Shown here one piece after another: positions 54,925 through 60,854 of a DNA stretch of 64,000 bases (its first letter is position 1; every line of letters starts with the position of its first letter). Location: contig JAWLEB010000001.1 of NCBI GenBank assembly GCA_041686375.1, forward strand, positions 73,997 to 137,996, read 5' to 3'. Source of the DNA: Bacteroidales bacterium. Its GTDB lineage: Bacteria > Bacteroidota > Bacteroidia > Bacteroidales > UBA12077. Below the pieces are notes generated by a model, which made no database searches, had not been told where the DNA came from, and saw only the letters and a list, made by a program, of their open reading frames with translations. Position numbers and translations under genes: made by a program.

Positions 54925-56049
54925 TTATAGTCTTAACAATTTCATCAGTTTAATGGAGAGATCGAGAAAAAGGGTTTTATTATGCGCATTCATTTGAATA
55001 TCACGTGATGCATTATTAATCTCAGTGAAAATTTTATGAGCATTGTTATTGTTAATAAACTGAGAAAATTTTATGGAGAAATCTTTTTCTTCCTGGGTAA
55101 GATATGTTATTTTTTCCATTTCCAAATTAAGCATAAAATTTTCTCTTACCATTCTTGCCGCATATTGAAGGAATATTTTTTGTCTTTCTCTTCCAAGTGA
55201 TGACATTTCATCTACCCAGTTCAGGATGTCGGTTACCTTTTTGGCATAGCTTAGACGCATTAATTCAACAAAACGTTTGAAATTGTTTTGTTCTTCCTCT
55301 CCGGTACGAAAATAGTGTAGCGCATCCAGGTAGCTCCCGTTCGCCAGGTGCACAATCTCTTGTGCCTTTTTTACTTCCAGCCCCATATGGTCTGTTAATG
55401 CATTAAACATACTTTGATCATCAATGCCGGGCACTTTAATATTTTGGGTTCTTGAAAGTATTGTTGGAAGCAGAAGGTCGGAGTTTTCAGAGACCAGAAA
55501 AAACAATGTGTTTGGTGGTGGTTCTTCAATGATTTTAAGCAGCTTATTTGCTGCACTGGTATGCATTCTTTCCGGAAGCCATATTATCATCGTTTTATAG
55601 GGAGACTCATAACTTTTATAATTTAACTTTTTTATGATGTTGTGGCTTTCATTTGCCGGAATAATTCCCTGTTTGTTTTCCAGTTCCAACTTGTGGTACC
55701 AGTGGTTTGGGCTAAGGTATGGGTTTTCGAGTATGGTGTTTCTCCATAATTCTGCGTAATTGTCACTGGTTTCAGGATTGGTCTGTGATGCCTTTTTTAC
55801 GGGATAGACAAAATGTAAGTCAGGGTGTACAAGCCTCCGATATTTTTTACAAGAATTACATATACCACATGAATCATTTTCCTGTCTGTTTTCACAATTA
55901 ATATACTGAGCATAAGCAATTGCAAGGGCTAATTTGCCTGTTCCCTGAGGACCCAGGAAAATTTGGGTGTGGCTTATTCTCTCATCTTTAACTGTTTTTA
56001 TCAGTTGTTGCTTTATTTTGTACTGTCCAATAATTTCTTTGAATTGCAT
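54925..56049 (-). CDS. holB: DNA polymerase III subunit delta'
   Basis: AAA+ N-domain GPQGTGKLALA, zinc module CGICNSCKK, and SRTQ sensor. Confidence 0.85.
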   Translation of the reverse strand: MQFKEIIGQYKIKQQLIKTVKDERISHTQIFLGPQGTGKLALAIAYAQYINCENRQENDSCGICNSCKKYRRLVHPDLHFVYPVKKASQTNPETSDNYAELWRNTILENPYLSPNHWYHKLELENKQGIIPANESHNIIKKLNYKSYESPYKTMIIWLPERMHTSAANKLLKIIEEPPPNTLFFLVSENSDLLLPTILSRTQNIKVPGIDDQSMFNALTDHMGLEVKKAQEIVHLANGSYLDALHYFRTGEEEQNNFKRFVELMRLSYAKKVTDILNWVDEMSSLGRERQKIFLQYAARMVRENFMLNLEMEKITYLTQEEKDFSIKFSQFINNNNAHKIFTEINNASRDIQMNAHNKTLFLDLSIKLMKLLRL

Positions 56050-56164
56050 ATCTGTTATTTATGGCTATATTTCTATGTTTTCATTATCTTCGCTGTTTGT
56101 AACAACTCTTCAAAGTTAATTAAAATAAAATTTTTATATTTAACTAAAAAAATAATACCAACCC

Positions 56165-58549
56165 ATGTATTCAATAGACAATTATAACTTTAAAGGTAAG
56201 AAAGTTTTAATGAGAGTGGATTTCAACGTTCCCCTCGATAAAAATCAAAAGATAACCGATGATACCAGGATAGTGACAGCTTTGCCCTCTATCCAGAAAG
56301 TTTTAAGCGAGAAAGCAGCACTAATTTTGCTTACACATCTGGGTAGACCTAAAGGCAAGTATGATGAAAAATTATCGGTAAAGCATATTGTTCCCTATCT
56401 TTCAAATATATTGGAACGTGAGGTTCAATTTGTCGATGGGTGCATAGGCGATAAAGTTAAAAAGAAAGTAAGTGAATTAAAGCCCGGCGAAGTTTTGATA
56501 TTAGAAAACTTGCGATTTCATCCGGAGGAAAAGAGGGGCGGTAGTGAATTTGCCCGGCAACTTGCTGAGTTAGGGGATGTATATATTAATGATGCATTTG
56601 GAACAGCCCATAGGGCTCATGCTTCTACTTATACGGTGGCTAAATATTTTTCCAAAGATAAGATGTTGGGTTATTTGGTAGAAAGTGAAATTAAGAATAT
56701 GGACAGGGTGCTGAATGAGCCAGAACATCCATTTACAGCAATTATAGGAGGGTCAAAGATTTCTACTAAAATACACATTATAAAAGCCTTAATTGAAAAA
56801 GTTGATAATTTAATAATTGCTGGAGGTATTGCTTATACATTTAGTAAGGCTACCGGCGGCAAAATTGGGAATTCCATTGTTGAGAATAATTATTTAGATG
56901 TGGCGCTTGAGATAATAGAAAAGGCAAATAAATTTAAAGTGAATCTTTATTTACCGACCGACTGTATTATTGCGGATGAATTTAAGAATGATGCTAATAT
57001 TAAACATACTGAAATAGACAGCATCCCTGACAACTGGATTGGAATGGATATTGGAATTAAATCTGCCAACCAGTTTGCAAATGTTATTGAAAATTCAAAA
57101 AAGATACTTTGGAATGGTCCCATAGGAGTTTTTGAGATGTCTAATTTTTCTATGGGGACCTTAAAAATTGCTATGGCAGTGGCTTCAGCAACAGACCGTG
57201 GTGCTTTTTCTGTGTTAGGAGGTGGAGATAGTATTTCTGCTGTTAATAAATATGGACTATCAAACCGTATTAGTTTCGTTTCAACGGCTGGAGGCGCTTT
57301 ACTGGAATATCTGGAGGGAAAAGAATTACCTAGTTTACGGGCAATTCGTGAACAACTGACGATTGATAATTATGATTTTAATGGGAAAAGAGTTTTAATG
57401 CGAGTTGATTTTAATGTCCCTATGGATGAAAATTATAATGTTTTGGACAACACCCGTATCATAACTGCTTTGCCAACTGTGCGGAAGATTCTAACAGATG
57501 GTGGTTCTATAATATTTTTGACTCACCTTGGGCGGCCGGTTGGCGAATATGATGAGCGTTTATCTCTCAAACATATCGTGCCTTATCTTTCCCGTATTCT
57601 GGATAAAGAAATAAAATTTGTTGATAACTGTCTGGGGCGCAGAGCTAAATTAGCTGCAGAAAACTTACAACCGGGAGAGATTCTGTTATTAGAAAATCTG
57701 AGATTTCATAAAGAAGAATTTGAAGGAGACGAACAATTTGCCAAAGAACTCGCTGAATTAGGCGATGTTTATATTAATAATTCTTTTGGTACAGCCCACA
57801 GGGCTCATGCTTCCACTTATACAATTGCCAAATTTTTCCCTGACAATAGAATGTTAGGATATTTGGTTGAAAATGAAATAAACAATATCAATAGAGTTCT
57901 GAAAAGGCCTAAAAGACCATTTACTGCTATTTTAGGAGGATCTCAGGTCTCTACCAAGATACATATCATTCTTTCATTGTTACAAAAAGTTGATAACCTG
58001 ATTATTGCCGGGGGTATTGCTTATACTTTTGTCAAAGCCATGGGTGGAGATGTCGGCGATTCATTAGTGGAGGAGGATTATCTTGATGTTGCTAAAGATA
58101 TCTTGGATAAAGCAGAAGAATTAGATGTAAGTTTATTATTGCCAATCGATTGTGTTATCGCCGACGATTTCAATAATAATGCTAATATAAAGCATAGTGA
58201 TATTAACAAAATAGAAAAGGGCTGGAGAGGGATGGATATTGGTATTAAATCTGCCAACAAATTTGCAGAAGTAATAGAAAGTTCATCTTCCCTGCTCTGG
58301 AATGGGCCAATTGGTGTTTTCGAGATGTCGAATTTTTCCAGTGGTACACTTCGCATAGCTTTGGCTGTTACCCGTGCTACTGATAAAGGTGCATTTTCTT
58401 TAATCAGTGGAGGTGACTCTATTGCAGCATTGAATAAATATAATCTGGCTCATAAAGTAAGCTATGTGTCTACAGCAGGTGGTGCTCTGCTGGAATTTAT
58501 TGAAGGGAAGCAATTACCTTCCCTGAAGGCTATTGAGGAAAATATTTAA
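56165..58549 (+). CDS. pgk: Tandem-fused phosphoglycerate kinase (PGK-PGK didomain, 794 aa)
   Basis: Two full PGK units with a period of about 396 aa and no gaps. Each carries RVDFNVP, HLGRP, ENLRF, GTAHRAHAS, GGS(K/Q).STKI, WNGPIGVFE, (G/S)GGDS, STAGGALLE. The junction ..LRAIREQ|LTIDNYDFNGKRVLMRVDFNVP lies near nt 57353-57358 with no stop. Confidence 0.9.
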   Translation: MYSIDNYNFKGKKVLMRVDFNVPLDKNQKITDDTRIVTALPSIQKVLSEKAALILLTHLGRPKGKYDEKLSVKHIVPYLSNILEREVQFVDGCIGDKVKKKVSELKPGEVLILENLRFHPEEKRGGSEFARQLAELGDVYINDAFGTAHRAHASTYTVAKYFSKDKMLGYLVESEIKNMDRVLNEPEHPFTAIIGGSKISTKIHIIKALIEKVDNLIIAGGIAYTFSKATGGKIGNSIVENNYLDVALEIIEKANKFKVNLYLPTDCIIADEFKNDANIKHTEIDSIPDNWIGMDIGIKSANQFANVIENSKKILWNGPIGVFEMSNFSMGTLKIAMAVASATDRGAFSVLGGGDSISAVNKYGLSNRISFVSTAGGALLEYLEGKELPSLRAIREQLTIDNYDFNGKRVLMRVDFNVPMDENYNVLDNTRIITALPTVRKILTDGGSIIFLTHLGRPVGEYDERLSLKHIVPYLSRILDKEIKFVDNCLGRRAKLAAENLQPGEILLLENLRFHKEEFEGDEQFAKELAELGDVYINNSFGTAHRAHASTYTIAKFFPDNRMLGYLVENEINNINRVLKRPKRPFTAILGGSQVSTKIHIILSLLQKVDNLIIAGGIAYTFVKAMGGDVGDSLVEEDYLDVAKDILDKAEELDVSLLLPIDCVIADDFNNNANIKHSDINKIEKGWRGMDIGIKSANKFAEVIESSSSLLWNGPIGVFEMSNFSSGTLRIALAVTRATDKGAFSLISGGDSIAALNKYNLAHKVSYVSTAGGALLEFIEGKQLPSLKAIEENI

Positions 58550-58775
58550 TTTTAGTTTATAATTTTAATGATTTATTTAACCCGAATTATTCAAAAATTT
58601 AAGTTCACCTAAGTCGGCATCACCTTTGCTTTGTCAATATTGCGGAGTAAGGGTTTAATCTGCATTTAATCCAAATATTTTATAAATATGAATTATGTTA
58701 GGTATTAATCAAATGAACAATTCATCGGAATATAAACTATTATATAGTAAGATGTAGAATAAAAAAGTTAAAGCC

Positions 58776-60065
58776 ATGATAGAAAAATACAATTTACCCT
58801 TGATACAAAATGCCGATCTGGATGGAAAGGTCGTTTTGGTAAGAGTTGACCACAATGTTGTAAAAAAAGGAGAAATCCATGACCCTTATCGTATTGACGC
58901 TACAATTGGAACACTATATCATATCAATGCAAAAGGAGGAAAAATTATTTTGATGACTCATGTGGGTCGTCCCAGAGATAAGAAAACGGGAAAGATAGAA
59001 ATTAGTGATGATTTATCAGTTCAACCCATTGTGGATTATTTGCAGAATAAACTTCATATATCTCTTAAAGTTCCGGAGTTTCAGCAACACGGGGATAAAG
59101 GCTATCTGGGAATTGAAACTTCCGTCAACCATTTAATACGTGAATTACGTGAAGGTAAGATTGATGGTATTTATTTGCCTAATACTCGTTGGTTTTATGG
59201 TGAAGAAGCAGGAGGGGAAGAAGCCGATAGGTTTGCTCATCAATTGGCCGGTCTGGCAGATATTTTTGTTAATGATGCTTTTGGTTCATGGCAACCACAT
59301 GCTTCCACTGTTGAAGTGAATAAATACCTTCCTTCTTATGCAGGTTTTTTGATGCAAAGTGAAATAGAAAACCTGGAGCGAATTTACAATCCAAGGAAAC
59401 CATTTGTTGCTGTAGTAGCAGGGGCAAAATTTGATACCAAGGCGGAACCCTTGTATGCTCTACTGGAGAAGGTAGATTATCTTATTTTAGGAGGCGTTAT
59501 ATACAACGCTTATCTTGCGGCTAAATATGGTTTTGAAATTAATGGAATCACGGAGGAAGACCGTAAGCTGGCAAAAGAATTTATAGATTATGCAGAAAAG
59601 TATCAAAATAAAGTAGTGGAACTTCCTTATATTATTGAGTCTGATACACTTGAGGGCAGGATTGAAGGGAAATACAGAGAACACTATATTCATGATTTAA
59701 AATTCGGTACCAAACTGAATTATGTTTTGGATGTGTCACACAAATCCTTTGAAGAGGAAAGGGTACAGGAAGTATTTCATAATGCACAGACTATATTTGT
59801 AAATGCTGTCATGGGTTTCACTCCATATTTTAATGAAGGAACCATAGCTCTTGACCAGCTTATTGATGAAAATGTTGATGCTGTGAAGTTATATGGTGGA
59901 GGAGATACAATGCAAGAATTGAAACGCCTGTTGCCTGGCTTGTATATTGTTGCACTGGATCATCCAAAATATTATATTTTCACCGGCGGAGGAGCCGTTT
60001 TGAAGGCTATACAAGAAGGAACAACACTTGGGCTTGAACCTGTCAAAGCCCTTAAAAATTCGTGA
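58776..60065 (+). CDS. Divergent phosphoglycerate-kinase-family protein (429 aa)
   Basis: The PGK scaffold is recognisable but altered: RVDHNVV, HVGRP, NTRW, NDAFGSWQPHAS, AGAKFDTK, GGGDT, FTGGGAVL. There is extra sequence between the HVGRP and NTRW motifs. Confidence 0.7.
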   Translation: MIEKYNLPLIQNADLDGKVVLVRVDHNVVKKGEIHDPYRIDATIGTLYHINAKGGKIILMTHVGRPRDKKTGKIEISDDLSVQPIVDYLQNKLHISLKVPEFQQHGDKGYLGIETSVNHLIRELREGKIDGIYLPNTRWFYGEEAGGEEADRFAHQLAGLADIFVNDAFGSWQPHASTVEVNKYLPSYAGFLMQSEIENLERIYNPRKPFVAVVAGAKFDTKAEPLYALLEKVDYLILGGVIYNAYLAAKYGFEINGITEEDRKLAKEFIDYAEKYQNKVVELPYIIESDTLEGRIEGKYREHYIHDLKFGTKLNYVLDVSHKSFEEERVQEVFHNAQTIFVNAVMGFTPYFNEGTIALDQLIDENVDAVKLYGGGDTMQELKRLLPGLYIVALDHPKYYIFTGGGAVLKAIQEGTTLGLEPVKALKNS

Positions 60066-60227
60066 TTTAGTTCATCGCAATAGAAATTTTGTTTTATTTT
60101 TGCTACAATCACCAGCGCTTTTTTCATTGGTTACAGGAAAAAATGACATTATAATGCTGGTGGTCATTATGGCAAAATTTGCGTTACAGCTTTTACAGCA
60201 AGATAGTTAATTTGGCTAAAAATTATT

Positions 60228-60854
60228 ATGAAAGGATTTGTAGTTTACGATATTCGGGGAATATTCAATTCGGATTTTGATAAAAATGATGTTTATAAAT
60301 TCGGATGTTTTATACCAGAGCTTTCAGATGCGGATAAAGTTTTGGTGGGAATAGATGTACGTGAAGGCCGGGATGAAATTTTTGACTACTTGCTTAAGGG
60401 ATTAACTGACAGAGGAGTTGATGTGTACGAGGTAGGGCTCGCCATTACCCTAATGGTATATTATCTTGTTGGGAAATATTCGTTTAAGCTTTCTGTACAA
60501 ATTACTGCTTCGCACAACCCAAAGGAGTATAATGGTTTCAAAGTATCCGGAGAAGAAGTTTTACAGGATATTCGTTGCTCAAAATCTGTCCAGGAGTATT
60601 TAGAAAAATTTGATGCTCGGGTTCATACCTGGAGGGTTGGAATAGCATTTGCATCGTCACGGCTGAAAGGGATTGACGAGCCTTATGGTGGAGACCTTGC
60701 AGGTCATTATTCCTTTAAAGATTTTTATTATTCTGATTCGGGTATTATGGCTGTCTTGATAGTTTTGGGCATAACAGCACAATTCAAAGAGCAGGAGAAG
60801 TCCATTTCTGATGTTATGGATGAAATTAAAAATTTGATAGTACCCTATCACTGA
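60228..60854 (+). pseudogene. Phosphomannomutase/phosphoglucomutase-family remnant (domain I plus fragment of domain III; intact 208-aa ORF)
   Basis: Domain I has YDIRG and phosphoserine motif ITASHNPKEYNGFKV. The sequence then jumps directly to GGDLAGHYSF...DSGIMAVL (domain III sugar loop). No DGDGDR-type metal loop and no domain IV are present. The stop overlaps the rnhB ATG (TGATG). Confidence 0.55.

Follow-up and report, generated by a model that had tools for sequence, protein, structure and literature searches.

A tandem phosphoglycerate kinase of Bacteroidales with glutamine at the phosphoryl-transfer lysine position of its second module

The window analyzed here is a stretch of 64,000 nucleotides from a Bacteroidales bacterium (contig JAWLEB010000001.1, positions 73,997 to 137,996), and the gene of interest within it encodes two complete phosphoglycerate kinase (PGK) modules in a single open reading frame (ORF). 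The first module is canonical throughout. In the second, the lysine that in PGKs contacts the transferring phosphoryl group is replaced by glutamine (Gln594), and two other columns that are invariant or nearly so among PGKs have changed to serine (Ser540 and Ser748). Module 2 nevertheless remains under strong purifying selection, and a third PGK gene nearby provides redundancy. Our preferred reading, to which we give roughly an even chance, is that module 2 has been weakened as a catalyst but continues to bind 3-phosphoglycerate (3-PG) and nucleotide, and that it has been retained to serve module 1 as a structural and possibly a regulatory partner. We infer the loss of activity, the retained binding and any regulatory role from sequence.

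The tandem gene and the changes in its second module

Fusion proteins of this kind are annotated in the databases simply as 'phosphoglycerate kinase', and no description of a tandem PGK was found in the literature searched (tandem, didomain or PGK-PGK fusion). The parts of the gene, and the altered residues of module 2, are the following.

56165..58549, + strand: tandem PGK-PGK fusion gene, one ORF of 794 codons with two full PF00162 matches
56165..57355, + strand: module 1 (residues 1-397), canonical PGK throughout, 507.1 bits to PF00162, K198 and K202 present
57317..57370, + strand: inter-module junction (residues 385-402), modeled as flexible, the only stretch with an AlphaFold2 predicted local distance difference test score (pLDDT) below 50
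57356..58546, + strand: module 2 (residues 398-794), PGK altered at three invariant columns, 481.9 bits to PF00162
57779..57781, + strand: Asn539 (codon AAT), at the Asp position of NDAFG, a trait of the whole fusion family
57782..57784, + strand: Ser540 (codon TCT), replacing the Ala of NDAFG
57944..57946, + strand: Gln594 (codon CAG, in GGSQVSTK), replacing the phosphoryl-transfer Lys, the presumed equivalent of human K215
58406..58408, + strand: Ser748 (codon AGT, in SGGDS), replacing the first Gly of the GGGD phosphate loop

Both modules match the Pfam PGK family from end to end (profile positions 1-379 of 379 in each, in a whole-genome search), and both scores are far above the family cut-off of 27 bits; for module 2, the match extends across both Rossmann-like domains. 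The two modules align to each other by BLASTP without a single gap, and 259 of 395 residues are identical (66%). Module 2 also aligns strongly with solved PGKs in HMMER searches (E 1.6e-115 for 1PHP; E 7.9e-115 for 1VPE).

The differences between the modules were counted over 48 invariant columns, defined as those at least 95% conserved among 142 single-type representative PGK domains in an alignment based on a hidden Markov model. Module 1 deviates at none of them, and so keeps all of the canonical motifs, as an earlier reading made from the DNA letters without database searches (the sequence-only reading) had claimed. Module 2 deviates at exactly three (K594Q, A540S and G748S), with the other 45 intact, and none of the three changed columns is a 3-PG-binding or nucleotide-base-binding residue. 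The change from GGSKISTK, the counterpart loop in module 1 (K198, codon AAG), to GGSQVSTK is read as that note described it, as is the change from GGGDS to SGGDS. In the HMMER alignments Gln594 lies opposite the first of the two loop lysines in both 1PHP (GGAKVKDK) and 1VPE (GGAKVSDK), so the lost residue is indeed the first Lys of the GGAKVxDK motif. The human number, K215, would follow from the register K215-V216-x-D218-K219 given in PMC6040698 rather than from a direct alignment. Ser748 corresponds to human G371 by register from D374, and the G-G-D that follows it is unchanged. Two features of a competent PGK (EC 2.7.2.3) are therefore missing from module 2, namely the phosphoryl-transfer Lys (Gln594) and an intact GGGD loop, the latter failing at its first Gly.

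The residues expected to hold the ligands are all in place. The motifs RVDFNVP, HLGRP, ENLRF and AHRAH are kept in module 2, with the 3-PG-binding basic residues that the sequence-only reading had listed as retained, and the basic patch is complete (R431, H454, R457, R513 and R546). We take these five residues to correspond to human R38, H62, R65, R122 and R170. Among nucleotide- and phosphate-binding positions, K598, N713, E720 and D751 are present (equivalent to K219, N336, E343 and D374).

The third change that had been reported for module 2, from NDAFG to NNSFG, is present but needs to be divided into two. The motif occupies 57776-57790, one base from the approximate position first given for it (57775-57789). 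Its Asp to Asn component is shared by all 16 module 2s and by 11 of the 16 module 1s in the genomes that carry the fusion, and so is compatible with Lys-bearing modules and is not a defect of module 2. The adjacent Ala to Ser component is the clade-specific change.

The window sequence at codons 594 and 748 is confirmed by independent data. Contigs assembled from other studies' sequencing runs are identical to the window, with 0 differences, over 57862-58012 (codon 594) and over 58231-58501 (codon 748). Their sources are salt-lake metatranscriptome libraries and one sediment DNA run, and codon 594 is seen in both an RNA library and the DNA run. The RNA-library contigs are parts of the fusion gene, none of them crossing the module junction, and as RNA libraries can hold DNA they are no proof of transcription.

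Conservation of the lysine and distribution of Gln594

The first loop Lys of PGK is near-invariant. A search with module 2 against 1.84 billion cluster representatives gave 26,122 matches, and the best 150 of these yielded 147 full-length PGK domains in 142 proteins. In the column of Gln594, 140 of the 147 domains have Lys, and the others have Gln (2), Glu (2), Asn (1), Ser (1) or a gap (1). All seven non-Lys domains also deviate at 4-11 of 15 key residues; they are located in two multi-PGK-like proteins (1918 and 1031 amino acids) and in two other deviant proteins. The remaining altered positions are similarly conserved in this set, with Gly in 137 of the 147 domains at Ser748 and Ala in 138 at Ser540. 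The Asn539 column has Asp in 136, Glu in nine and Asn in two, and both modules of the fusion-family representative (P0122) carry Asn.

A second search compared the loop region of module 2 (residues 180-222) with proteins as long as a single PGK; of the 159 that passed the E-value threshold, from 232 candidates, 120 were listed. No full-length single PGK with Gln is found among these 120 loop-matched proteins; Gln occurs only in the query and in two N-terminally truncated fusion fragments. The sequence-only reading had proposed a broad PGK alignment, and had allowed that many active single PGKs with Gln would speak against it. The alignment of the 147 domains bears out the near-invariance of the Lys, the exceptions being heavily degenerate in every case, and among the 120 proteins listed such single PGKs do not appear. 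As a separate observation, the 1918-residue protein (P0128) contains three full-length, heavily degenerate PGK-like domains and the 1031-residue protein (P0132) contains two, with 5-11 of the 15 key residues deviating in each domain and Gln, Glu or a gap in the Lys column.

This conservation agrees with what is described for the residue in those parts of the structural and kinetic literature on which we draw. In a transition-state-analogue complex of human PGK, the ammonium group of K215 is hydrogen-bonded to a fluorine of MgF3- (PMC5594045); K215 is termed an essential catalytic residue (PMC2441801), and the charge of the transition state is described as balanced by R38, K215 and K219 (PMC6040698). 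Both loop lysines are reported to be invariant across 48 bacteria (PMC5705920). For K219, the neighbor of K215, one study reports that replacement by Ser in human PGK lowers kcat/KM by 400-fold, that two mutations rescue the Ser219 enzyme, after which many residues are tolerated at 219, and that archaeal PGKs never have K219 (PMC3723536).

The fusion itself is old relative to the glutamine. Among 41 genomes (the window's own and 40 relatives), it is present as one open frame in 16, all of them from the window's family (f1) and distributed over four genera, with no frameshift or stop in any of the 16. Genomes from the other families of the order have one canonical PGK each. At least 120 database proteins contain the fusion, nearly all of about 794 amino acids and a few truncated, and where a source is named it is a metagenome bin of Bacteroidales, Marinilabiliales or Bacteroidota. 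On a tree of the modules, every module 1 groups apart from every module 2, and a branch with 100% support sets both kinds apart from single PGKs. The module 1 and module 2 subtrees are congruent, which points to a single duplication at the root of this Bacteroidota family.

Gln594 is a recent derived state of one sub-clade in one genus and is not a property of the fusion as such. It occurs in five of the 16 fusion genomes, all from the window's genus, and in 11 of 130 distinct two-module fusions, while the other 119 keep Lys in both halves. A DNA pattern for the Gln loop matched four of 56 family genomes, which is an undercount, as it missed a known carrier (G013). The Gln594 codon is CAG in four genomes and CAA in one, and Ser540 is encoded by TCT, TCA and TCC, so that both residues persist through synonymous turnover; Ser748 is AGT in all three genomes that have it. 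Since Gln594 is shared by relatives, is written with synonymous codons and is found in identical independent contigs, it is due to neither chance nor sequencing error.

The asymmetry between halves is as sharp across the sub-clade as it is in the window. At the 48 columns, module 1 of the 11 Gln-type fusions shows no deviation in any sequence, and module 2 shows K594Q in 11 of 11, A540S in ten and G748S in six, with no other deviation. For the 119 Lys-type fusions the mean number of deviations is 0.01 in module 1 and 0.05 in module 2, and a single protein, P0010, accounts for two of their six module-2 deviations and is the only one of the 119 with Ser540. A rough Poisson estimate, made by hand from FastTree branch lengths and treating the five remaining singleton deviations outside of the clade as events, gives about 0.2 invariant-column events expected on the clade's module-2 branches, against at least three observed (P of about 0.001). 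The changes are nested on the FastTree tree of 130 fusions, with Gln appearing first, then Ser540, and then, in one branch, Ser748. The Gln clade has also gained two adjacent Arg in module 2, at residues 492-493 (57638-57643), where other fusions have mostly Glu, Asp or Lys.

P0010 (779 amino acids, from a metagenome contig) is a special case. It nests within the Gln clade and has Ser540, Ser748, Ser341 and Asn760, but it has Lys at 594. Of 18 informative sites in its module 2, 13 have the state of the clade, among them sites that flank residue 594. Recombination or chimera formation was considered as the origin of this Lys and was rejected, as there is no recombination patch among the 18 sites. 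Site 594 has therefore changed at least twice, by one gain and one reversal or by three gains. The pattern fits a relaxed or permissive constraint at residue 594 and does not fit irreversible fixation of Gln.

Constraint, predicted contact and redundancy

Module 2 is under strong purifying selection and is only mildly accelerated in the window's genus; it is not decaying in the usual sense. The ratio of nonsynonymous to synonymous rates (dN/dS, omega), which the sequence-only reading had suggested comparing between halves, was estimated by the Nei-Gojobori method. Synonymous divergence was saturated in eight of ten within-clade pairs, and the two usable pairs give omega for module 1 and module 2 of 0.032 and 0.019 (L001-L028) and of 0.021 and 0.029 (L022-L026). 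The ratio of dN in module 2 to dN in module 1 is 1.0-1.5 inside the clade, as compared with 0.88-1.74 in Lys-type pairs. With a fixed topology, the branch-length ratio of module 2 to module 1 is 1.37 for the clade, 1.24 for Lys-type congeners, 1.04 for other genera and 1.92 for the genus stem; on the tree of 130 fusions it is 1.35 in the clade (1.109/0.822), and a value of 1.04 was derived for the remaining tree.

The two modules are predicted to touch through a pair of equivalent surfaces.

56960..57268, + strand: module 1 C-domain face toward module 2 (residues 266-368), from the complex prediction
58148..58444, + strand: module 2 C-domain face, the symmetric counterpart (residues 662-760), the same residue set after subtraction of 396

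A full-length AlphaFold2 model (113-row alignment) has a pLDDT of 84.5 and a predicted template modeling score (pTM) of 0.61; both modules fold well, and their mutual placement is not fixed. When module 1 and module 2 were instead predicted as a complex, the score was 0.65 (0.65, 0.00 and 0.70 in separate runs), compared with 0.09 for the best control, with a contact agreement of at least 65% and a partner pLDDT of at least 86. Of solved complexes, 116 of 157 attain the mark used for this score, and of mismatched pairs two of 215 do; these counts are rough here, as a custom alignment was used. The predicted interface is symmetric and lies entirely within the nucleotide-binding C-domains. In the 130 fusions its columns show conserved, mostly hydrophobic residues in module 1 and module 2 alike (I298/I694, L333/L729, M337/M733, H281/H677 and R341/R737). 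Among the 142 single-type PGK domains these positions vary and are polar, with Pro in 93 of them at column 694, and mostly Lys, Glu or Arg at column 733. R737 is invariant in 130 of 130 fusions, and single PGKs have mostly Glu, Lys or Asp there. Such a hydrophobic patch, specific to the fusion family and placed at the predicted contact, is what would be expected of a real intramolecular pseudo-dimer. The interface helix 330-344 directly follows the ribose-binding Glu in the sequence. Two clade-specific changes occur at a predicted contacting pair, Arg341 to Ser in module 1 (57185-57187) and Ser760 to Asn in module 2 (58442-58444); Arg737 is the symmetric partner of Arg341.

The redundancy comes from a gene that was absent from the sequence-only reading.

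58776..60065, + strand: PGK3, a third, divergent PGK gene of 429 amino acids, 274 bits to PF00162, 226 bases downstream of the fusion

The window's own genome has only three PGK modules, the two that are fused and PGK3. PGK3 has both loop lysines and differs from the invariant residue at 15 of the 48 columns; its changes include Gln for the Arg of AHRAH, a missing ribose-binding Glu, and VNAV for WNGP. Of the 15 genomes of the genus besides the window's own, eight have it as their sole PGK homolog (G003, G005-G009, G012 and G014; loci L033-L040). In those eight congeners holB directly adjoins PGK3, so that the fusion is missing at the syntenic site. They form one clade behind a long branch on the PGK3 tree (100% support), which makes the absence a single event. 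The glycolytic partners GAPDH and TPI are present in each of the four fusion-less congeners tested, and as PGK3 is the only PGK homolog there, it probably can serve as a PGK. PGK3 has homologs of 75-93% identity not only in bins labeled Bacteroidales but also in some labeled Desulfobacterales or Desulfobulbaceae, a distribution that suggests transfer across phyla.

Beyond PGK3 lies a 208-residue ORF (60228-60854, + strand) with only domains I and III of a phosphoglucomutase/phosphomannomutase (PGM/PMM), which has the appearance of an internally deleted remnant. In two relatives (G006 and G012) about 450 bases separate the matching PGM/PMM parts, the spacing of a full gene, and in four others (G008, G014, G003 and G009) rnhB comes directly after PGK3. 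An antisense ORF of 92 amino acids inside module 2 (58078-58356, - strand) has no support that we could see and is probably spurious. A scan of 55900-60300 for regulatory signals was uninformative, with 21 promoter-like sites against 18.8 expected and four terminator-like sites against 2.7 expected.

Weighing the readings and comparison with known systems

The history that we favor may be set out as follows. One duplication at the base of the Bacteroidota family would have fused two complete PGKs into a single-chain double PGK, the modules of which probably pack via a symmetric contact between C-domains. In most of the family every catalytic residue is kept in both halves. In the window's sub-clade, the module 2 Lys that contacts the transferring phosphoryl group was replaced by an uncharged Gln, and later two more invariant active-site residues of module 2 changed, Ala to Ser and Gly to Ser. 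With module 1 and PGK3 still supplying PGK activity, selection on the chemistry of module 2 could relax, while selection on its fold, on its substrate-binding residues and on its contact with module 1 apparently did not. The sequence-only reading had likewise proposed one catalytic half and one weakened half. The near-invariance of the Lys, the asymmetry at three sites, the constraint and the predicted contact all agree with that proposal for the sub-clade, but it does not hold for the fusion at large, as the asymmetry is absent in 119 of the 130 proteins.

Several points weigh against a weakened, retained half. Gln can still donate a hydrogen bond, and the Ser changes could be compensatory rather than degenerative, by analogy with the PGK that does without a loop lysine after two background mutations in the human enzyme, as described in PMC3723536. 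The two or more changes at site 594 would also fit near-neutral toggling, or selection to regain activity. The acceleration of module 2 predates the change from Lys to Gln, as it starts on the genus stem (1.92) and is seen in the Lys-type congeners (1.24), and the omega values rest on two pairs only, dS being saturated in the other eight of ten. For the predicted contact, one of the three complex runs scored 0.00, the AlphaFold2 pTM of 0.61 leaves the packing of the modules unfixed, and the complex score could reflect a memory of crystal contacts in solved PGKs. PGK3 deviates at the R170 and E343 positions, and we infer its competence from the completeness of the pathway only.

The main alternative, which we consider rather unlikely, is that module 2 is still a working PGK site and that a background including Ala540Ser and Gly748Ser has made the K215-equivalent position permissive, as a natural counterpart of the 'transition sequences' made in the laboratory, which can do without K219. 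The rescue of human K219S by two mutations and the archaeal PGKs without K219 (both as reported in PMC3723536) provide the precedent. In addition, 45 of the 48 invariant columns are untouched in module 2, including those of every other ligand-binding residue, omega is about 0.02-0.03, and Lys and Gln both occur within one clade on the same Ser540/Ser748 background. Such constraint is explained equally well by a structural or binding role, however, and no otherwise intact non-Lys PGK appears among the 147 domains or among the 120 loop-matched proteins listed. Moreover, the lost charge is one that contacts the transferring phosphate, and Ser side chains are unable to supply it. Another possibility, which seems to us distinctly improbable, is that the double PGK is dispensable in the genus and module 2 is a redundant half at the first stage toward loss. 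Eight of the 15 congeners have no fusion at the syntenic site, but as these form one clade the absence reflects a single event and not a recurrent tendency. Module 2 has evolved 1.2-1.4 times faster than module 1 in the genus (1.04 in other genera), its three invariant-column changes accumulated stepwise, and the neighboring PGM/PMM gene is a remnant in the same genome; against this stand the low omega, the lack of frameshifts or stops in 16 of 16 genomes, the persistence of Gln and Ser540 through synonymous codon changes, and the fact that no invariant column beyond the three sites is broken in any of the 11 Gln-type sequences.

An alternative to which we give a still smaller chance than to early decay is that module 2 has acquired new chemistry or a sensor function, either through a changed substrate or by sensing 3-PG or ATP/ADP and tuning module 1 across the C-domain contact. 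It would account for changes that are concentrated at the phosphoryl-transfer center while the binding residues are kept, and it could draw on the clade-specific predicted contacting pair (R341S/S760N), on the two new Arg at 492-493 and on the position of the interface helix 330-344 directly after the ribose-binding Glu. The proposal is purely inferential, and neither a new motif nor a ligand signature was found. Each of the co-changes arose just once, on one branch, and P0010, which has S341 and N760 together with Lys594, indicates that they are not tied to Gln. A broader possibility, unlikely in our judgment, is that module 2 is a natural 'permissive' PGK in which K215 is exchangeable, and that it either catalyzes without the charge or acts as a sensor of 3-PG and nucleotide that tunes module 1 via a C-domain pseudo-dimer.

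PGK is a standard example of a monomeric, hinge-bending enzyme, and the lysines of its active site are regarded as invariant. Module 2 shares the fold of the canonical monomeric PGKs (Geobacillus stearothermophilus 1PHP and Thermotoga maritima 1VPE) and has their motifs along its full length. The fusion differs from them in that two units are joined in one chain, in that module 2 is without the first loop Lys and has Ser at two invariant positions, and in the hydrophobic C-domain patch, which single PGKs are without. Kinase duplication with fusion is known from the mammalian 100-kDa hexokinases (type I versus type II) and from eukaryotic phosphofructokinase, where either both halves are catalytic or one half is silent, conserved and ligand-binding. 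The arrangement of hexokinase I is matched in outline, with two homologous halves of which one has the complete set of catalytic residues (0 of 48 columns deviating) and the other lacks the catalytic Lys (3 of 48), and with the altered half under purifying selection (omega of 0.019 and 0.029; rate ratio of about 1.35). The likeness is one of analogy, as fold and chemistry are different, and the putative silent state of the PGK fusion is recent, limited to one bacterial sub-clade and based on a single catalytic residue.

Closer in chemistry are human K219S and the archaeal PGKs without K219, as described in PMC3723536; there, too, an 'essential' Lys of the same GGAKVxDK loop has been exchanged, with second-site changes nearby. 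The fusion keeps the K219 equivalent and loses that of K215, however, and its change sits in a redundant module of a fused protein, whereas the archaeal change spans a domain of life in working enzymes. The 'dead' PGKL domains of kinetoplastids and diplonemids are PGK folds inside larger proteins that were judged inactive from their sequences (PMC7729029). In those domains, as that source presents them, substrate-binding residues are substituted or deleted and the fusion is to unrelated domains. Module 2 differs in changing at 3 of 48 columns and in keeping all of its binding residues, and the multiple substrate-binding losses of the kinetoplastid type are not found in it.

The family provides a set of matched natural controls: intact double PGKs, the Gln sub-clade, an apparent revertant inside of that sub-clade, and a sister clade that does without the double enzyme and relies on PGK3. 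These make it possible to test the catalytic dependence on K215 in a bacterial PGK, the idea that redundancy lets an 'essential' residue drift, as was argued from the laboratory evolution of K219, and the conversion of a fused duplicate into a structural or regulatory partner. Should module 2 prove to be a permissive or sensor module, it would put the charge-balance model of phosphoryl transfer to a natural test, and it would give a bacterial parallel to the regulatory halves of the animal hexokinases.

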